Below are positions 5,674 through 55,953 of a DNA stretch of 64,000 nt, in pieces; position 1 is the stretch's first letter, and every line of letters starts with the position of its first letter. Origin of the DNA: Candidatus Woesebacteria bacterium (GTDB lineage Bacteria > Patescibacteriota > Microgenomatia > UBA8517); contig JAGVAE010000002.1 in NCBI GenBank assembly GCA_020060565.1, positions 19,974 to 83,973 of the forward strand. The letters are read 5' to 3'. A model generated the notes under the pieces. That model made no database searches and was not told the DNA's origin. It saw nothing but the letters and a program-made list of their open reading frames with translations. A program made the position numbers and the translations under genes.

Positions 5674-6534
5674 TCATTTTTGGCAGACTGGGCACCAGTA
5701 AGTTCCACGTCCGCCCAAGAAGTATTTTTCGATTCTGACACCTGCCTGCCGGCAGGCAGGTCTTTCGCAAGGTTCTCCATCATGTCCATATGCTAGAGTA
5801 TGGTTTTGATATTCTCCTTCTTTTCCATCTGGGGTAACAAAGGCAAGTTCTGAGGCTCCTCCATATTTTAGACCTGCTTTAAGAACCGTAATGATTGCTT
5901 TATATAGTTCTTCAACTGTTTTTTCTTCTAAGCTATTCGCTTTTCGTTTCGGATCGATACTCGAAAGCCAAAGTGCGTCGTTTGCATAAATGTTCCCCAC
6001 TCCCCCTATTTTTGTTTGATCCATTAGTACAACTTTTACAGCTCGAGAACTTTTTGAAAAAATATTTTGAAGTTCTTCTAAGGAAATTTCCAATGCATCC
6101 TTTCCAAGTTTGCTTATAAATCTTTCATCATTTACCTCTTGCCTTTTAACTATCTTTATCCAACCAAAACGTCTTACATCGTTGTAATAAAGAACACCAC
6201 CGCGGTCTAAATCAAAAATTACTAAGGTGTGGGGGCCTGGTACTCCACCAATAACTTTAGATGATAGCGAATAGTTATTAGTAGTTAGATTGGGACCTTG
6301 ATAAATATACTGCCCAGTGAGCTTGACGTGAGTAATTAGCGAGTAGCCATTAGAAAAATCTATTACAGACACCTTTCCAAAACGCCTTACGTCTTTAATT
6401 TTACCTCCAATAATATTTTTTGTGTCCCCGCTTAATATCTTTTCACTAAATATCTTTATATCTTTTATCACATGTCCAGTAAGGAATTTCTTTAATTGAA
6501 GCCTCATTGTCTCAACCTCTGGTAGTTCAGGCAT
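5674..6534 (-). CDS. mutM: formamidopyrimidine-DNA glycosylase (Fpg/MutM)
   Basis: N-terminal MPELPEVETMRL (catalytic Pro2, Glu3), H2TH region and C-terminal zinc finger CPVCQK. Confidence 0.9.
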   Translation of the reverse strand: MPELPEVETMRLQLKKFLTGHVIKDIKIFSEKILSGDTKNIIGGKIKDVRRFGKVSVIDFSNGYSLITHVKLTGQYIYQGPNLTTNNYSLSSKVIGGVPGPHTLVIFDLDRGGVLYYNDVRRFGWIKIVKRQEVNDERFISKLGKDALEISLEELQNIFSKSSRAVKVVLMDQTKIGGVGNIYANDALWLSSIDPKRKANSLEEKTVEELYKAIITVLKAGLKYGGASELAFVTPDGKEGEYQNHTLAYGHDGEPCERPACRQAGVRIEKYFLGGRGTYWCPVCQK

Positions 6535-6547
6535 AGAGATATTATAT

Positions 6548-6615
6548 TACAATCTCATTGTTCCTGCCCCTCGAAGCCTTGGCGAAGTGGGGTCTACCTC
6601 AGGAAGTTCTGGCAT
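6548..6615 (-). other. 22-codon mini-ORF (MPELPEVDPTSPRLRGAGTMRL) duplicating the fpg 5' end, containing the 27-nt repeat
   Basis: Minus-strand atgccagaacttcctgaggtagac + cccacttcgccaaggcttcgaggg + gcaggaacaatgagattgtaa. It matches the true fpg start (atgcctgaactaccagaggttgagacaatgagg) and lies 13 nt upstream of it. Confidence 0.4.
6568..6594. repeat. 27-nt exact repeat copy 1 (ccctcgaagccttggcgaagtggggtc), intergenic upstream of fpg
   Basis: Identical 27-mer is found at 38841..38867 inside the transketolase C-subunit coding sequence. Flanks are partially similar (TCAGGA..TC..G). Confidence 0.7.
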
Positions 6616-6617
6616 AT

Positions 6618-8567
6618 TTAATTATCACTTCTCAAGTCACTAGAATCAAATATTATTCCTTGTTTATATTCAGTGCTTTTAGGAAATTTCTTCCCTACCT
6701 CTGGTTGAACAAATATTACTTTAGGTTCTTTGTAGTCCTGCGGATGGTAAAAACGTGCTTTATCTCCATTACTTACAATACCCAATATCTTTCCAGTTTC
6801 AATATCTTTGAATGGTTCGGGTAGAATATTTACAACATGGAAACAGGGATCGTTATACATCTCACTAATAAAATGTGGGCACCTCAGTGTTGAATCGTAT
6901 CTTGCACATGTTACAAGACCAACTTTATCGGCAGTAAGCATATGAAATTTTTCGTTAATAAGTGTCCCACCGCCAAAGTCCATATCAACAATAAAAACTG
7001 CCCCTGGATACAATTTATTAAAGTGCTCAGCTTTAGCATAAAAATCATCAAGATCTCTATACCTTTTATTTCCAATTTTATAACCCAATAGATTAACAAC
7101 TGGACCTTCAACCTGTCCAATTGAAAAATTGTTTGTTTCGGCTGTAAAATCGACCAACACAAGCTTTTCATCGATCTGATTTATTTCTGGCACAACACTT
7201 GATGATTTAAGTTTAAGTTTCGGACGAATCTGGACAATATATAGGTTTTCTCCGCCAGCTAAAGCTTCGACATTAAACTCTCCATTATAATCTGGGTATT
7301 TTTTTGACAACCTTCTTGCAATACGCGCAATTTTAACCATTTCCTTTATTGGCATCTTTGTCAATTGCTTGGGATAAAAGACATCTTCAACAATATCCTT
7401 TCTGCTAATTATCTTATTATTTGTATCTATTATTGCTTTACGTCCCACAAAGTCACTTGATCTAAATAATTGTCTATTAACATATTCCACACTTACTTCC
7501 CCATGGTTATAGAAAACTCTACATACGAATTTATAATCTTTGGGGATTTCCTGAACAATCACAGCTAATGCTCTTGAAGTTTTCCCTATCAAATTACGAT
7601 TTCTTAGATAGAATTCAGCATAGGAAGACCAGGGGCTTAAATACACATGTCTAAGAGCTTTATAGGCATCTTCGGTTGTATGTATATAATCATAACTCTC
7701 GAAAACCCCACCAAATTGATATTCATCACCATCTTCAAGAGGAAAACTAGACCTAAATATAAGATCTTTATTTAAGATACACCCATGTTTTGCCCCTGCA
7801 AATTCAACAACCTTTTTACAAATTAGGGGTTTAAATATGCTTTCATAAAAATTCAGTGAATCGAAAAGTTTTTCAATAGCGTGTGGAATAGCACGAGATG
7901 AAAGATCAAATGTTGCAATGTTTAAACCATTCTGCCTCATAATATCCTCAGGAGAATCGAAGCTAGACATAATTTCTTCTGCCTTACCCTCAAAACCAAA
8001 TGCATTCATTTTTTTATAAAAATTTGTGGGTATTACGAAAAAATCAGGTACTTTAAAACCCACATTTTCATATTTTTTTAGTCTAACTTGCCCAAATGCC
8101 TTTCCCCCAATCTCTTCTACCGTAGCCTTTTCCATACCCCTCTCGGTAGGCATTGTAAGATTCTTCATTCCCCACGGTGAAAAAATCATTTTTGCTTTTT
8201 CCGAAAAGAAATTGCTCACTAAAAAAACTGAGTGCTGCATTAAACCATTACGTTTGTTTTTTCTATTTGACCTGTCATAACATGGAGATTCTTCAAGAAC
8301 TAGCGTGGCGAGTCTTTCTCCAGTAGTATCTTTTACCTTAGCAATTGTCATTGGTCCCAAATCCCAATTTTCATAATTGTGGCAATATAAAATGTTCTTT
8401 CTGGGTATTAATCTTTCTTTTTGTATTATATCTCCATCGTAATAGCCACCAGAAAGAGCGGTATGGGGATTCTTTTCGTTTAAATAAACACTGGCGAAGT
8501 CTTTGATTCTTTTTCTTTGTACAATCCCAGGTAATAAATCTTGATGCCAAGTTGGTCTTTCTGCCAT
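6618..8567 (-). CDS. PPDK_N (PEP/pyruvate-binding, ATP-grasp-like) domain protein, large hypothetical
   Basis: EEIGGKAFGQVRLKKYENVGFKVPDFFVIPT resembles the GGKxxxL...G.PVP.GF.IT signature of PEP synthase/PPDK N-terminal domains. The C-terminal roughly 300 aa has no recognised family. Confidence 0.55.
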   Translation of the reverse strand: MAERPTWHQDLLPGIVQRKRIKDFASVYLNEKNPHTALSGGYYDGDIIQKERLIPRKNILYCHNYENWDLGPMTIAKVKDTTGERLATLVLEESPCYDRSNRKNKRNGLMQHSVFLVSNFFSEKAKMIFSPWGMKNLTMPTERGMEKATVEEIGGKAFGQVRLKKYENVGFKVPDFFVIPTNFYKKMNAFGFEGKAEEIMSSFDSPEDIMRQNGLNIATFDLSSRAIPHAIEKLFDSLNFYESIFKPLICKKVVEFAGAKHGCILNKDLIFRSSFPLEDGDEYQFGGVFESYDYIHTTEDAYKALRHVYLSPWSSYAEFYLRNRNLIGKTSRALAVIVQEIPKDYKFVCRVFYNHGEVSVEYVNRQLFRSSDFVGRKAIIDTNNKIISRKDIVEDVFYPKQLTKMPIKEMVKIARIARRLSKKYPDYNGEFNVEALAGGENLYIVQIRPKLKLKSSSVVPEINQIDEKLVLVDFTAETNNFSIGQVEGPVVNLLGYKIGNKRYRDLDDFYAKAEHFNKLYPGAVFIVDMDFGGGTLINEKFHMLTADKVGLVTCARYDSTLRCPHFISEMYNDPCFHVVNILPEPFKDIETGKILGIVSNGDKARFYHPQDYKEPKVIFVQPEVGKKFPKSTEYKQGIIFDSSDLRSDN

Positions 8568-8601: not shown

Positions 8602-9711
8602 CTACGAATGTTTGTTGACAAATTCTAGAATCTCTTTTTTAAATCTTTCTTTTGAAAATTTTTTGGCTTGGGTTATGCAATCTTCTGGACTAAATTTCAT
8701 TTTTTCAAACTTTTTAATTGCTTCCGATAGACTTTCTACTGTTGGTTCGTTGAAAAATACTCCTGTTTTGTTTTCGGTAACCGACTCAAGATATCCCCCT
8801 CCCCTAAAAGCTATCACAGGCGTTCCTGATAACATTGACTCAACTGGAGTCATTCCAAAATCTTCATCTGTTGAAAGAACTAAAAAAGCCTTCGCTGTCG
8901 CGTAAAGTCTTGCAACTTCGGTGTCAGTAACATGACCCAAGAATTCTATATTGTTTTTTGATAGTTTTTGCAGTTTTTTATACTCCATATAATACCCAGC
9001 TGGGCTTCCTGCAACTTTTAATTTTATGCCTAGCTTGATTGCAGTTTTGATAGCTAAATCAATTCCTTTTCCGCCAACAATACGGCTAATTATTAAGTAA
9101 TAGTCCTCTTTTTGTACTCTTCCAATTTCTGGTATTTCAACTGGTGGATATATTACCGTAGAGTCCCTGTGGTATATATCTTTAATTCTTCCCGCAACAT
9201 TCTTTGAGTTTGATATAAAATAGTTTACTTTTTGAGCCATTGTAAAATCATACTTCCTCATAAAGAAACCAACGATCTTTGCATATAGTCTGACTATCCA
9301 ATATTTTTGGAACTCTATTGAGGTTTTATATCCGTAAAGCCACCTTGGTGGTGTATGACAATAACAAATTTCAACTGGCCTCTTCTTATCAGTTCCGCGG
9401 GTTCCAAATCCCTTGGTAACATACCAACTTGCGGATGAAATCACTAAGTCATATTCTGAAAAATCAAAACTACCCCAGATAAAAGGTGCTAAAAATCTTA
9501 GAGGGCTATGCAAGTATTTTGAAAAGAAGGGAATTTTATGTGCCCAGGAGGTAATTATTTTTTTATTTTTGAATCTTTCATACGCCTGAGATTTTTCTCT
9601 ATAAAAAGCAGTGTAGATTGGGGCATCGGGATAAATTTCAGATAACGCCAATAGAACCCTTTCTGCTCCCCCAAACTCATTTAGATAATCATGTACCAGT
9701 GCTATTTTCAT
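8602..9711 (-). CDS. glycosyltransferase family 4 (GT1 fold)
   Basis: MKIALVHDYLNEFGGAERVLLAL N-terminus and C-terminal EDFGMTPVESMLSGTPVIA (EX7E-like) motif. Confidence 0.85.
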   Translation of the reverse strand: MKIALVHDYLNEFGGAERVLLALSEIYPDAPIYTAFYREKSQAYERFKNKKIITSWAHKIPFFSKYLHSPLRFLAPFIWGSFDFSEYDLVISSASWYVTKGFGTRGTDKKRPVEICYCHTPPRWLYGYKTSIEFQKYWIVRLYAKIVGFFMRKYDFTMAQKVNYFISNSKNVAGRIKDIYHRDSTVIYPPVEIPEIGRVQKEDYYLIISRIVGGKGIDLAIKTAIKLGIKLKVAGSPAGYYMEYKKLQKLSKNNIEFLGHVTDTEVARLYATAKAFLVLSTDEDFGMTPVESMLSGTPVIAFRGGGYLESVTENKTGVFFNEPTVESLSEAIKKFEKMKFSPEDCITQAKKFSKERFKKEILEFVNKHS

Positions 9712-23461: not shown

Positions 23462-25959
23462 TCAGAGTGGCCGCAGGCGTGGCATTTGGAGCAGCCTTCC
23501 TCAAAAACCATGGCGGGAGATCCACAGCTGGGACAGATATCTCCTATTTTGTTATCTTGCGGGATATTTAATGCCATCTGCTGCACCTCTGGCTCAAGCG
23601 GTGTATCGTGATTAATATTATTAAATCCAAAGTGCATTCCAATAGCTTTTGCAATAGCATCAGGTAGGGACCTAACTTTATTTATTCCAAATCCTACAGA
23701 TCTACTACCTCCAATTCCTTGAAGTTGTTCCATAATTTCCCTGGCTCTTTCTCTTGCTGGCAGATGATTTCCAAATCTGAAATTAGTTGAGACTAAACGC
23801 CCCAACGCTTCCGCCATGGCTGCAACTTCACTTCCTGCTTTTCCTATGGTTACAAATAATTCAAAGGGTTCTCCCGTTTCTGTCTCATTAATGGTAATGA
23901 ATGAACTTCCCAGTGGAGTTAATATTCTATAAGTTGACCCACTGACTTTAACGGGGCGCTCCATTATTACTGATTTTTGTGTGTCTTCTTGTTTACTTTC
24001 TTTTTCGGTTTTATTGTTTGTTCCAATATTTAAGACTTGTTCGTTTTTACTTCCATCTCTAAAAATTGTTATTCCCTTACAGTTTGACTCCCAAGCAGAA
24101 AGATATGCATTTTTTACGTCATCTACCGTTGAATCATGACTAAGATTTATGGTTTTACTGACTGCATTTTCTGTGTATTTTTGAAAGGCAGACTGAATTT
24201 TGATATGCCATTCAGGTGCAATTTCATGAGCAGTACCAAAAACGGCACGTACATCAGCAGGAATCTCTTCCATTCCCCGTATTACTCCACGTTCTCCCAC
24301 TTTTGTCATTAAAGATTCATTCCAAAAGCCCTTTTCTTTGGCAATTTTTTCAAATCTAGGTTCTACAAAGGTTAATTTTCTATCTAGGTGTTTATCTTTA
24401 ACAATGTGTTGATATGCAACCGCAAACATGGGCTCCACCCCACTAGAAGCTCCTGCAATAATTGAAATTGATCCAGTTGGTGCAATTGTTGTGACTGTCG
24501 AGTTCCTTCTTGGAGGACCTTCTCTATAAATACTTACAGGGAAAAGTGGAAAAGGACCACGTTCTTTTGCCAGTTTTCTATCTTCATCTAATGCTTCATC
24601 TGAAATAAACTTCATTACTTTTTCGGCCAAAACTATTGCTTCTTCACTATCAAATGGAATTCCCAGCTCAATCAACATGTCACTCCATCCCCCCACTCCA
24701 AGACCAATACGGCGTGCATTAAATACCGTTTTTCTTAACTGCTCCAGGGGAAGTGGATTAACTTCGATGACATCATCCAAAAATCTTGTCGCGGTTCTGG
24801 CAACTTGGGCTAGTTCATCCCAATTGATTTTCCCGTCTTTCACAAAATAACCAAGGAAAATACTTCCCAAATTACAGGCATCGAATGGATATAGAGGTTG
24901 TTCACCACACGGATTAGTTGACTCAACTGGACCCAATACTGGGATTGGGTTTCCGCTTCCAGCATTAATTCTATCAATAAAAATTAAGCCTGGGTCCCCT
25001 GACCTCCAAGCTGCATTAGCAATCTCGTCAAAGACCTTTCTGGCATTTAGAGCTCCTACAACTTTCTTTGTTCTGGGATCAATAAGACTATAATCTTCAT
25101 CTTTTTTATACGCTTCCATAAAAGGATCTGTGATTGCCACTGATATATTGAAGTTAGTTATTCCCCCTTCTTCTTTACAATGAATAAACTCCATAACATC
25201 AGGATGGTCTACTCGGAGTATTCCCATGTTGGCCCCTCTTCTTTTTCCTCCCTGTTTAACTTCATTTGTTGCTGCATCAAATATTCTCATAAACGATATT
25301 GGGCCACTTGCGGTCCCACTTGATGTTTTAACTATCGAACCGTTAGGGCGAAGTCTACTAAAAGAAAATCCAGTTCCCCCACCAGTTTTATGAATTATTG
25401 CCTGGTATTTAAGTGCATCAAAAATCCCTTCCATAGAATCTTCAACAGGGAGAACAAAACAGGCTGAATATTGAAGACCATTACCTGTTCCTGCATTCAT
25501 TAGAGTTGGTGAGTTTGGTAAAAACTTTCTTGAGATCATAAGGTTATAGAAGTTGTGGGCCATTTTTTCTACTCCTTTTTTGGTTGCCCCCCAAACCGCC
25601 TCAGCAGATGCTATCTCCCAAGAAATTCTCCAAACCATTTGTTCTGCAGTTTCAATTGGTTTGAGTTCATCATTCTTCATCAAGTAGCGCTCATTTAAAA
25701 CTTTAAGAGCTTGCTCGGTCCACTCCCCTTTGGGTAAACCTTTTGGCATGGCTGGCATACTACCTATCTTTTTTCTAATTTTTCCTGTCACTTCTTCATA
25801 AGATGGAGCAGAGAGGTCGTTTATTGTTATTTTTGTTTCCCCATTTTTGTATACAAACTTATTCCCTCCGGGCCGTAGGCCCTTTGGGCCGGAGGCTTTT
25901 CTTTTATCTTTTGTTTGTAATTGCATATTTTTTAAGTTACTTCTCAATAAGTTTTTCAA
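23455..25959 (-). CDS. nrdJ: ribonucleoside-triphosphate/diphosphate reductase, adenosylcobalamin-dependent (class II, NrdJ)
   Basis: Active-site motifs YSACFVLPVEDS and TNPCGEQPLYPFDACNLGSI. C-terminal zinc ribbon CPSCGSP...CSKCHACGHSEC. NrdJ-like N-terminus EQALKVLNERYLMKNDE begins near M67/M70. The first 66 codons overlap nrdR and the GC-rich element and may not be translated. Confidence 0.9.
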   Translation of the reverse strand: MKNLLRSNLKNMQLQTKDKRKASGPKGLRPGGNKFVYKNGETKITINDLSAPSYEEVTGKIRKKIGSMPAMPKGLPKGEWTEQALKVLNERYLMKNDELKPIETAEQMVWRISWEIASAEAVWGATKKGVEKMAHNFYNLMISRKFLPNSPTLMNAGTGNGLQYSACFVLPVEDSMEGIFDALKYQAIIHKTGGGTGFSFSRLRPNGSIVKTSSGTASGPISFMRIFDAATNEVKQGGKRRGANMGILRVDHPDVMEFIHCKEEGGITNFNISVAITDPFMEAYKKDEDYSLIDPRTKKVVGALNARKVFDEIANAAWRSGDPGLIFIDRINAGSGNPIPVLGPVESTNPCGEQPLYPFDACNLGSIFLGYFVKDGKINWDELAQVARTATRFLDDVIEVNPLPLEQLRKTVFNARRIGLGVGGWSDMLIELGIPFDSEEAIVLAEKVMKFISDEALDEDRKLAKERGPFPLFPVSIYREGPPRRNSTVTTIAPTGSISIIAGASSGVEPMFAVAYQHIVKDKHLDRKLTFVEPRFEKIAKEKGFWNESLMTKVGERGVIRGMEEIPADVRAVFGTAHEIAPEWHIKIQSAFQKYTENAVSKTINLSHDSTVDDVKNAYLSAWESNCKGITIFRDGSKNEQVLNIGTNNKTEKESKQEDTQKSVIMERPVKVSGSTYRILTPLGSSFITINETETGEPFELFVTIGKAGSEVAAMAEALGRLVSTNFRFGNHLPARERAREIMEQLQGIGGSRSVGFGINKVRSLPDAIAKAIGMHFGFNNINHDTPLEPEVQQMALNIPQDNKIGDICPSCGSPAMVFEEGCSKCHACGHSEC
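25864..25896. repeat. GC-rich alternative-hairpin element, copy A (CCCTCCGGGCC-gta-GGCCC-ttt-GGGCC-GGAGG)
   Basis: About 62% GC element in a 33% GC genome. Lies between the nrdR stop and the probable nrdJ start. A second copy is at 45809..45843 with identical stems and different loops. Confidence 0.6.
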
Positions 25960-38410: not shown

Positions 38411-39373
38411 TCAAGCGTTTTTACGAGCAAGAACTTTTTTAACAGCCTCGACTATGTTTTTTGATTTCAAACCAAACTTTTCCCACAATTCCATTGGATC
38501 AAGAGATGATTCACCAAAGCAGTCATGTACTCCTATAAATTCAATTGGAACGGGATGTGTTTGGCAGACAACTTCAGAAACTGCACTCCCCAACCCCCCC
38601 ATTATTTGATGTTCTTCAACTGTTACAATTGCCTCGCAAATTCTAGCTGCATTAGTAATTGCAATGTCATCAATTGGTTTAATTGTATGATTATTAATAA
38701 CTATTGTTTCTATCCCCATCTCTTTTAAGTCTTTTGCGGCAGAGAGAGCTTCGGAAAGGATTGGGCCGCAACCGATTATCGCAACCTGGGGGTCACGTCC
38801 TTCATATAGTGTATTTGCTTTTCCTATCTCAAACTCTTGTCCCTCGAAGCCTTGGCGAAGTGGGGTCGTCAATTCAGGAGACTCCTGACGTGCCAATCTT
38901 AAATATGAAGGCTTTCCGTTACCTGCGATAGATATTGTGGCTTTTTTGGCTTCTTCATAGTCACAGGGAGAAACTACAACCATATTGGGGATTACCCGCA
39001 TGAGTGCAATGTCTTCCAATGATTGGTGTGTCGCTCCATACATTGAAGCACCAAAACCTGCATGGGCTCCTATTATTTTTACTGGGACATCATTAAGAGC
39101 CGCCGTAATTTTAATTTGTTCCCAGGTACGCCCTGGAGAAAAAACCGCATAACTGGTTGTAAATGGAATCTTTCCAGCTAAAGCCATTCCTGCGGCAACA
39201 GTAACAAGCGCTTGTTCCGCAACTCCCACCTGAAAAAATCTATCAGGAAAGGCTTCTGCAAATTCTTTTACTCTGGTTGACTCGGCAAGGTCGGCAGTCA
39301 AAACTACAACATCAGGGTTTTTATGCCCTATCTCAACCAGCGCCTCTCCAAAACCATCACGTATCGATTTCAT
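38411..39373 (-). CDS. tkt: transketolase, C-terminal subunit (split transketolase)
   Basis: Pyrimidine-binding and C-terminal domains (FFQVGVAEQALVTVAAGMA, FEIGKA). 320 aa. Contains the 27-nt repeat in frame (TTPLRQGFEG). Confidence 0.9.
   Translation of the reverse strand: MKSIRDGFGEALVEIGHKNPDVVVLTADLAESTRVKEFAEAFPDRFFQVGVAEQALVTVAAGMALAGKIPFTTSYAVFSPGRTWEQIKITAALNDVPVKIIGAHAGFGASMYGATHQSLEDIALMRVIPNMVVVSPCDYEEAKKATISIAGNGKPSYLRLARQESPELTTPLRQGFEGQEFEIGKANTLYEGRDPQVAIIGCGPILSEALSAAKDLKEMGIETIVINNHTIKPIDDIAITNAARICEAIVTVEEHQIMGGLGSAVSEVVCQTHPVPIEFIGVHDCFGESSLDPMELWEKFGLKSKNIVEAVKKVLARKNA
38841..38867. repeat. 27-nt exact repeat copy 2 (ccctcgaagccttggcgaagtggggtc) inside tkt C-subunit coding sequence
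   Basis: Identical to 6568..6594. The encoded segment RQESPELTTPLRQGFEGQE is about 6 aa longer than the usual loop before FEIGKA in transketolases. Confidence 0.7.
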
Positions 39374-45618: not shown

Positions 45619-45798
45619 TCAACTTAGCTTCAAATAAATAGCGAATGCCACAAGGACAAGGGAAACCAAAAGCCATTGGGTTGCTGCCAACCAAATATCT
45701 GGGCCTATCCAACCTTCTGCAGCCATTAAAACTGCCAGCCCTGATCCATACATTAAATATTTGGAAATATTGGATTTGGTATTTTTACTAAATTTCAT
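45619..45798 (-). CDS. small membrane protein (hypothetical), start taken at MKFSKNT
   Basis: 59 aa with two TM segments. Preceded by GGAGGGGGG-8nt-ATG. The longer ORF to 45864 would translate the GC-rich element. Confidence 0.4.
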   Translation of the reverse strand: MKFSKNTKSNISKYLMYGSGLAVLMAAEGWIGPDIWLAATQWLLVSLVLVAFAIYLKLS

Positions 45799-45808
45799 AT
45801 TGCTCACC

Positions 45809-45843
45809 CCCCTCCGGGCCAGAGGCCCCATGGGCCGGCGGCC
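45809..45843. repeat. GC-rich alternative-hairpin element, copy B (CCCTCCGGGCC-aga-GGCCC-cat-GGGCC-GGCGG)
   Basis: Same stem segments as copy A with different loops. The 3' GGAGG(GGGG) arm in gene sense doubles as the SD for MKFSKNT. Confidence 0.6.
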
Positions 45844-45983
45844 TTTCTTATTTAATATTAGCACTTGACGAAGAAGTTAGTTAAAAGTAAATTGAACAAG
45901 TTGGTGAATTACGGTGTAATTCCGTAGATGTGCCGCAACTGTATATCCAGAGCCCAATTTAGCTTAGAAACCCGAGCAGGAAA

Positions 45984-55589: not shown

Positions 55590-55660
55590 ACAAGATGTAT
55601 TTTACTAGGAAGTTCTAAGTATTACACTTGGTTTATCAAAGTTGAATCTAAAAATCTATG

Positions 55661-55953
55661 CTCCCCGGGCTGGATTCGGACCAGCGACCTTATTCTTACA
55701 ATTGCCCTTCTGTTACCAAAAGGATTGGACTATCTCATCCCGCCTAAATATTAAATTTTTGGTGGGTCAGGTATATAGTCTCTACACATTTACTACGTTC
55801 ATGTAAACTGAACGTGGATTTAGCTCGGGATTACCCAAAGATTTCTCCTAGGGTTTCCCCGAATTAGCCTGATTTTCCACTCCGAATTACTTCGAAGCGC
55901 TGCCTTAGACCTATAGTCGACAGGAATCCGCTCTACCGCTGAGCTACCGGGGA
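55661..55953 (-). tRNA. tRNA-Asn(GTT) interrupted by a group I intron (exon 1 55920-55953, exon 2 55661-55698)
   Basis: Exon 1 TCCCCGGTAGCTCAGCGGTAGAGCGGATTCCTGT + exon 2 TAAGAATAAGGTCGCTGGTCCGAATCCAGCCCGGGGAG gives a 72-nt cloverleaf: U1-A72, D-loop AGCGGUA, anticodon loop CUGUUAA (identical to E. coli tRNA-Asn), T-arm GCTGG-TCCGAAT-CCAGC, G73. CCA not encoded. Confidence 0.75.
55699..55919 (-). mobile_element. group I intron (221 nt) in tRNA-Asn anticodon loop between positions 35 and 36
   Basis: 5' exon ends in U, which can pair with G of the candidate IGS GCAG (in ...AAGGCAGCG...). Intron ends in G (..CAATTG). Core elements resemble R (GTAGAGACTATATACC) and S (GAGATAGTCC), which pair to form P7 (GACTA/TAGTC). 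Too short to encode a protein. Confidence 0.7.

Follow-up and report, generated by a model that had tools for sequence, protein, structure and literature searches.

A 30-nt dispersed repeat shared by a second fpg start and a transketolase gene in Candidatus Woesebacteria, with parallel cases in other lineages

MITEs and the REP/REPIN sequences, the latter mobilised by RAYT transposases, are short, non-autonomous, multi-copy DNAs, and some integrative elements bring along a replacement for the end of a gene, as phages do when they integrate into tRNA genes. The Rickettsia palindromic elements (RPE), which Ogata and colleagues reportedly described in 2000, are said to be palindromes of about 100-150 nt that are found in one genus and act as selfish in-frame inserts in coding sequence. 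SDR4-6 of the cyanobacterial small dispersed repeats (SDRs), as Elhai and colleagues are said to have described them in 2008, are 21-27 nt long, near-identical across genomes and generally without target duplication, and lie in tandem heptamer repeats or hairpins and within ORFs. PMC4390886 and PMC3116915 cite Elhai et al. (2008, Genome Res 18:1484) on small dispersed repeats of cyanobacteria.

In the 64-kb stretch of DNA analysed here (the window), the 27-mer CCCTCGAAGCCTTGGCGAAGTGGGGTC occurs exactly at two places, 6568-6594 upstream of fpg and 38841-38867 within the transketolase gene tktC (plus-strand positions); no further copy was found in the window at up to three mismatches, and none was expected from 100 shuffles. 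This bears out the sequence-only reading of this DNA, in which a mini-ORF upstream of fpg was seen to embed 27 nt identical to the transketolase gene. The shared identity stretches to 31 of 33 nt (6562-6594 against 38835-38867), and the 64 kb contain no second repeat of this sort. As to the similarity claimed for the flanks, CCTGA... on one side and ...TGAGAT on the other are indeed shared, but these matches are short and their excess over chance is not demonstrated. On the alignments, the 27-mer is the core of E30, a GC-rich dispersed repeat of 30 nt (CCCCACTTCGCCAAGGCTTCGAGGGGCARG(C)) whose aligned copies share 30-31 nt between unrelated flanks, and the fpg leader and tktC sites are both copies of the E30 family. 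E30 (n = 2) and a 20-nt palindrome, P20 (n = 1), are the only repeats of this type that the window as a whole shares with unrelated loci.

The functional fpg gene of the window (5674..6534, minus strand) encodes 286 aa with Fapy_DNA_glyco, H2TH and zf-FPG domains. Upstream of it on the same strand lie a 649-aa PPDK_N-like ORF (pyruvate phosphate dikinase ATP-binding; 6618..8567) and, beyond this, a glycosyltransferase (GT) gene (8602..9711). In most of the ~75 metagenomic fpg relatives the 3' end of the GT gene reaches up to the fpg ATG or overlaps it, with nothing like the mini-ORF there, and thus marks the ancestral position of the fpg start; no homologue of the 649-aa ORF was found near fpg in ~80 fpg relatives. 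In the window, the stop codon of this ORF is followed on the minus strand, after 2 nt, by ATGCCAGAACTTCCTGAGGTAGA-CCCCACTTCGCCAAGGCTTCGAGGGGCAGG-AACAATGAGATTGTAA, then TATAATATCTCT, then the fpg start ATGCCTGAACTACCAGAGGTTGAGACAATGAGG. The first of these, ATGCCAGAACTTCCTGAGGTAGA (6593..6615), is a vestigial fpg start comprising codons 1-8, which we call the stub: it is identical to the real start at 19 of 23 nt, with all four differences at third-codon positions, and to the GT/fpg junction of the relative L081 at 27 of 28 nt. A 26/26 identity of the stub with the L081 fpg start was considered as proof of native origin and set aside, the sequence being near the family consensus.

E30 copy 1, CCCCACTTCGCCAAGGCTTCGAGGGGCAGG (6563..6592, minus strand), stands in frame after nt 23 of the stub and is followed by the stub continuation AACAATGAGATTGTAA (6547..6562, minus strand), which holds fpg codons 8-12 and a TAA stop where the real fpg has CAA, and which is homologous to the post-element sequence of another lineage, L106. 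Together these parts form the mini-ORF (MPELPEVDPTSPRLRGAGTMRL and a stop; 6547..6615, minus strand), an ORF of 22 codons made up of fpg codons 1-12 and a ten-codon insert. That the mini-ORF duplicates the fpg start, as had been proposed, therefore holds, and the similarity survives correct alignment; its middle, however, is not replaced but interrupted by a clean in-frame insertion, since excising the 30 nt at 6563-6592 gives ATGCCAGAACTTCCTGAGGTAGAAACAATGAGATTGTAA, which reads MPELPEVETMRL and a stop. The stub stop is separated from the real fpg ATG by a spacer, TATAATATCTCT (6535..6546, minus strand), of 12 nt rather than the 13 nt first counted. L106 has TACAATACCTAT at the spacer position, clearly homologous to the window spacer, and it is tempting to speculate that TATAAT in the spacer (TACAAT in L106), 6 nt before the ATG, is a -10 box giving a leaderless transcript. 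A 1,340-nt metagenome contig with an identical fpg (L080, JGI Ga0104761_1028033) ends 11 nt 5' of the ATG, short of the element; a contig end at this place would fit an assembly broken by the repeat.

A search for the 27-mer beyond the window, which the sequence-only reading had recommended, was run with the exact 23-nt core of E30 on one genome per GTDB species (596 Gb). The core was found in 79 stretches from ~60 assemblies, with ~0.02 expected by chance, so that copies elsewhere are many and the earlier suggestion of a small mobile element gains support; it is from this distribution that we infer mobility of E30. The hosts are mainly Patescibacteria (Levy-, Roizman-, Woese-, Curtiss-, Chisholm- and Collierbacteria, Peregrinibacteria/Peribacteria, Saccharibacteria and several Parcubacteria), and E30 is also present on two long verrucomicrobial contigs (421 kb and 365 kb, GC 0.58-0.62). 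Many matches are MAGs labelled Gammaproteobacteria, a label that seems doubtful because of their low GC and of genes orthologous to those of Patescibacteria MAGs. A complete Woesebacteria chromosome of 1.08 Mb contains a single exact copy, which suggests that genomes usually hold few copies, with bursts now and then. IMG/VR gave no match for E30 with either the exact or a relaxed pattern; in Rfam the window had no match at E30 at the gathering threshold and the element-bearing loci L056 and L027 none at E<=1. In the literature we found neither E30 nor P20 in any paper, whether as nucleotide sequence or as encoded peptide, and no report of such elements in Patescibacteria.

E30 is exactly ten codons long and free of stops in all six frames and can thus sit in coding DNA without breaking the frame. 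Of 84 distinct copies, 56 are located in open frames 150 codons or longer; 49 of these 56 have the same orientation and read PTSPRLRG (26), PLRQGFEG (19) or HFAKASRG (4). Some copies are hosted by heptamer arrays, as in a Peregrinibacteria MAG in which five loci each hold two copies with a single heptamer between them (37-nt period), and others stand in loops between inverted repeats. Direct repeats of at least 7 nt surround 12 of 85 copies as compared to 6 of 471 control junctions, mainly in the heptamer arrays, and outside these arrays no regular target-site duplication was found among the 85 copies. The search for a target-site motif yielded only a weak bias towards purines, at positions -1, -2 and +32 to +34, and neither RNA nor DNA folds of E30 exceed those of shuffled sequences (z between -0.6 and +0.2). 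In three orthologous gene sets E30 is identical at 28-30 of 30 nt between flanks that are 55-75% identical, a difference that is partly one of ascertainment in that the search demanded an exact 23-mer. In one MAG (CAZHGF01; L018, L063 and L075) E30 forms the left end of a unit of ~190 nt that occurs at no fewer than three loci of that genome, and can therefore be a component of larger composite repeats.

The layout of the fpg leader is not unique to the window. In a pattern scan, four other lineages (L106, L124, L136 and L149) also proved to have an additional fpg-like start 5' of fpg. In L106 the stub ATGCCAGAACTACCTGAAGAAGTCGA is followed by a 31-nt E30 variant, then by AACAATGAATCTGTAATACAATACCTAT and the ATG; in L124 the stub ATGCCCGGATTACCGGAAGTTG is followed by a 30-nt E30 variant (GGGGTAAA), 19 nt and the ATG. 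L136 and L149 both have a stub of fpg codons 1-8, an element of ~70 nt with the termini CCCC(A/G)C...GGGGCARG, and AACAA... leading into a spacer that bears a Shine-Dalgarno motif. All elements of these parallel stubs begin with CCCC and end with GGGGCARG, and the insertion point in the five lineages lies after GTNGA of codon 8, or, in L124, 1 nt earlier after GTTG. The L106 stub is abutted by the GT gene and so sits at the ancestral position of the fpg start. In the Fpg tree the five stub carriers are scattered, each beside stub-less relatives. Over 60 nt the L136 element shows 92% identity with sequence at an unrelated Levyibacteriota locus, L027, which indicates that the longer elements are dispersed too; IMG/VR gave no match for this ~70-nt relative of E30.

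The same arrangement recurs in a different gene at L027 (417-573). There a 14-codon ychF stub, MNLSVGIVGLPNVG, is cut in the P-loop and followed by the element of ~66 nt that resembles the one in L136, by a 47-nt spacer with the Shine-Dalgarno motif AAGGAG, and by a full ychF of 424 aa. Stub and real start specify the same 14 residues with 11 codons different, all of them synonymously (e.g. Ser TCA versus AGT). This ychF also carries further small inserts, among them a reverse-frame copy of E30 (LAPRSLGEVG). When 1 Mb of gathered sequence was scanned for start peptides that recur within 400 nt although their nucleotide identity is low, only the cases described here came up.

How did the two starts come to stand side by side? 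The simplest answer would be one-step insertion that duplicates the 5' end of the gene, be it through a long target-site duplication, which the sequence-only reading had entertained for the fpg start, or through Campbell-type integration of a small circle carrying a start. Such a step would account for the co-occurrence of stub and element, since the site is free of elements in all stub-less relatives, and a stub with no element beside it was seen in L134 alone, as a short fpg-like start 1,448 nt upstream; it would also fit the use of one insertion codon in five lineages and the fact that, among duplicates of the left flank lying 3' of the element, those of the fpg cases have the highest scores. 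Yet in each of the six stub cases 4-11 codons differ between stub and real start, and pooled these amount to ~28 synonymous versus 2 non-synonymous codon differences. Neutral decay of a fresh duplicate would give mostly non-synonymous changes, so that stub and start appear to have diverged as functional genes, in different genomes. The almost purely synonymous differences thus argue against a target-site or recent tandem duplication and point to recombination with a diverged homologue. Moreover, the element is found within the first copy and not between the copies, and most E30 copies have no flanking duplication at all. We therefore regard one-step duplication as very improbable.

Recombination at this locus is also suggested by the window fpg gene itself, which looks like a mosaic. 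Compared with L081, its nt 1-505 are ~50-80% identical per 30-nt block, whereas from nt ~505 through the downstream VTT-domain gene identity switches sharply to 95-100%; the upstream GT gene is 84% identical. At the protein level no relative in the set exceeds 66% identity to the N-terminal half of the window Fpg, as opposed to 92% between the C-terminal half and L081, and this discrepancy is the largest among the ~70 Fpg relatives compared. The N-terminal half of the L081 protein is normal (79% identical to several relatives). A donor for the 5' half was searched for among 5.8 billion proteins and not found, the best match to the N-terminal half being 70% identical; the half may have come from an unsampled donor, or it may have evolved fast.

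We propose, with a probability of about 0.72, that an element of the dispersed E30 family inserted into a resident fpg, that the start was restored by recombination with a diverged homologue, and that the stub was left as an upstream ORF. The element would have landed in codon 8 of fpg, and an insertion right after the catalytic N-terminal PELPEVE of Fpg can be expected to abolish enzyme activity. Just downstream, a synonymously diverged homologous copy would then have contributed an intact start, with no fresh tandem duplication involved, while the disrupted start would have remained as the 22-codon upstream ORF and kept the original initiation context. Ribosomes probably end translation of the mini-ORF beside the real ATG. 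As its stop lies 12 nt before an ATG at which no Shine-Dalgarno motif was found in the window, termination-reinitiation coupling into fpg is plausible. E30 itself is likely to have been spread by a trans-acting insertion process and, between orthologous genes, also by short-patch homologous recombination. Some observations count against this account. The missing donor leaves room for fast evolution of the fpg 5' half, and the other stub-bearing fpg genes have no N-versus-C anomaly. The junction with the intact start lies ~12-50 nt from the ATG in every case, which random illegitimate recombination does not predict. Finally, neither an enzyme nor an intermediate nor a filled-versus-empty polymorphism within one population was seen for E30.

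Could the leader instead have been kept because it is useful? Mini-ORF and E30 might constitute a selected upstream ORF, a leader peptide or an attenuator that controls fpg. All five fpg lineages have a short ORF that runs from the stub ATG to a point between 41 nt upstream of the real start and an overlap with it, and the absence of a Shine-Dalgarno motif from the real ATG of the window would suit such control. In addition, the window and L106 stubs look homologous and still encode intact peptides, with mostly synonymous changes between them, which could mean selection on the mini-ORF. On the other hand, the leader is absent in ~70 of the ~75 relatives, the inserted element varies by lineage (30, 31 or ~70 nt), and the Rfam searches of the window and of two other element-bearing loci matched no RNA family at the element. 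An attenuator, as proposed in the sequence-only reading, finds no counterpart in the fpg leader: whereas attenuators and leader peptide systems have a terminator or alternative RNA structures between leader ORF and gene, no terminator-like site was found there, and the fold is no better than that of shuffles (z = 0.02). We hence consider a selected regulatory leader unlikely, although the mini-ORF may passively couple translation into fpg. Insertion of E30 followed by restoration of the start from a homologue remains our preferred reading of the fpg leader.

The second window copy of E30, CCCCACTTCGCCAAGGCTTCGAGGGACAAG (38836..38865, minus strand), lies in tktC (38411..39373, minus strand), whose product has the transketolase pyrimidine-binding and C-terminal Pfam domains. 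It encodes residues 170-179 (TPLRQGFEGQ) in the interdomain linker between Transket_pyr (3-165) and Transketolase_C (184-307). The loop had been noted to be about 6 aa longer than in other transketolases, and this is correct, as the ten element codons stand where most relatives have four. Among the best 120 homologues, 110 read ...ITK-x-x-D-KFEIGKA, and the insert codons are limited to the other 10, which read ...I(S/T)TPLRQGF(A/E)GQEFEIGKA; relative to the closest insert-free tktC (87% aa identity) the window gene has 30 nt in place of 12 nt. In an NJ tree the ten insert-bearing genes are scattered and the window tktC is nested among insert-free ones. From the loss of the same four codons in all insert-bearing genes we infer that the insert spread among orthologues by short-patch recombination and not by repeated independent insertion. 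Three other insert-bearing tktC genes have a GCG subvariant (…GGCTTCGCGGGGCAAG) that is near-constant while adjacent codons vary synonymously, whereas the window copy has the canonical GAG form, which may stem from gene conversion by other E30 copies. In L162 a gene of the bAvd / 23S_rRNA_IVP family (2518-2880) lies immediately 3' of the E30-bearing tktC; bAvd proteins go with diversity-generating retroelements.

It could be argued that the two window copies derive directly from one another, tktC or the leader having served as template for the other in a template switch or a gene conversion, with the 27-mer private to this genome. The two copies are identical at 28 of 30 positions, have a flanking GA in common and share the GAG form that the three other tktC genes lack, so that some homogenisation between them is plausible. 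However, 23-30-mers of the repeat are found exact at unrelated sites in the ~60 other assemblies, and the fpg stubs elsewhere carry other members of the family. These two facts rule out copying within the genome as the origin of the leader copy, and we rate this explanation as a whole as highly improbable. The direct template switch from tktC into the leader that had been suggested is likewise not sustained, both sites being copies of one family and other tktC genes carrying a different subvariant.

The fpg gene of the window contains yet another small repeat. P20, a perfect palindrome of 20 nt (CCTGCCTGCCGGCAGGCAGG, 5741..5760), forms fpg codons 259-265 (PACRQAG) and supplies the second Cys codon of the zinc finger. 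At this site the window differs from L081 by a gain of 20 nt and a loss of 8 nt in a background of 97-100% identity; substitutions cluster within ~40 nt on each side, which looks like a short conversion tract. The identical 20-mer is present at the same fpg site in three other lineages and absent from L081, and it recurs at unrelated loci and in 35 IMG/VR viral stretches, in heptamer arrays, hairpin loops and tRNA genes. Other fpg genes have different small inserts in the zinc-finger loop, including an E30 variant in L097. On the viral contigs L166/L189 and L196, P20 occurs in tRNA-like sequences, in variable-loop and D-loop regions.

A few other features of the window may be mentioned. The named best matches of tktC and Fpg suggest that the DNA probably comes from a Woesebacteria-like member of the Microgenomates. 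Positions 55706-55934 (minus strand) match an Rfam group I intron with 81 bits, and the flanks 55655-55693 and 55921-55953 resemble tRNA halves, which suggests that a group I intron splits a tRNA gene; ARAGORN called no tRNA at this site, and trial splice joins gave none. An AdoCbl-II riboswitch match at 45889-45960 (plus strand) is, with 39.5 bits, barely over threshold. At 45795-45853 and 25858-25902 there are two GC-rich hairpins that resemble each other, CCTCCGGGCC...GGGCCGGAGG with T-runs behind them, and that look like terminators or another small repeat.

As a tentative generalisation, which we hold to be possible but rather doubtful, E30, P20 and the ~70-nt relatives could belong to one undescribed, cross-phylum class of ultra-small mobile DNA. 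Its members would use heptamer arrays, hairpin loops and coding DNA as insertion sites, with a chemistry that does not duplicate the target, their sequence would be fixed by a need for template or recognition, and strikes at the 5' end of a gene would trigger or accompany the rebuilding of its start from a homologous copy. If mobile, E30-type elements would be among the smallest mobile DNAs known and would cross phylum boundaries, and the puzzle posed by the small dispersed repeats of cyanobacteria would become one of bacteria in general that can be studied in many genomes. Small elements of this kind remodel proteins, as seen in the 10-aa transketolase loop (E30) and the rebuilt Fpg zinc finger (P20), and are associated with rebuilt gene starts. 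They may also provide diverged genomes with identical stretches able to seed recombination. In practical terms, they produce spurious short ORFs and peptide "families" and may break assemblies, and identical 30-mers in unrelated genomes can mislead screens for contamination or gene transfer.

Among the known systems, the integrative elements that replace gene ends resemble the fpg leader in leaving a displaced partial copy of a gene end beside an intact gene. In the leaders, however, 40-130 nt lie between the copies, there is no integrase, and the copies are not identical core sites. From a transposon target-site duplication the arrangement differs in that copy 1 itself contains the element and that almost all differences between the copies are synonymous, and from CRISPR repeats E30 is set apart by having at most two tandem copies with a single heptamer between. 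Like MITEs and REP sequences, E30 is short multi-copy DNA that is presumably moved in trans, although no transposase was identified in association with it, and it has complementary ends of 4 nt, CCCC...GGGG. Unlike MITEs it lacks real terminal inverted repeats and a target-site duplication of fixed length, and unlike REP/REPIN sequences it has no stable palindromic hairpin and is mostly intragenic (56/84). With RPE it shares the in-frame insertion into protein genes and the addition of a tolerated peptide segment, but it measures 30 nt, forms no significant hairpin and spans phyla.

By host and, it seems, by sequence E30 stands outside the described SDR families: it is exactly 30 nt long and mostly intragenic, and its hosts are Patescibacteria and Verrucomicrobia, with no cyanobacterial genome among the 79 GTDB matches to the 23-mer. 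A stub followed by a restored start has, to our knowledge, not been reported for SDRs. Then again, E30 is like SDRs in being short and near-identical at many unrelated loci, in occurring in heptamer arrays, in hairpin loops and inside ORFs, and in having no regular target duplication. By analogy, then, the small dispersed repeats of cyanobacteria are the closest analogues of E30.
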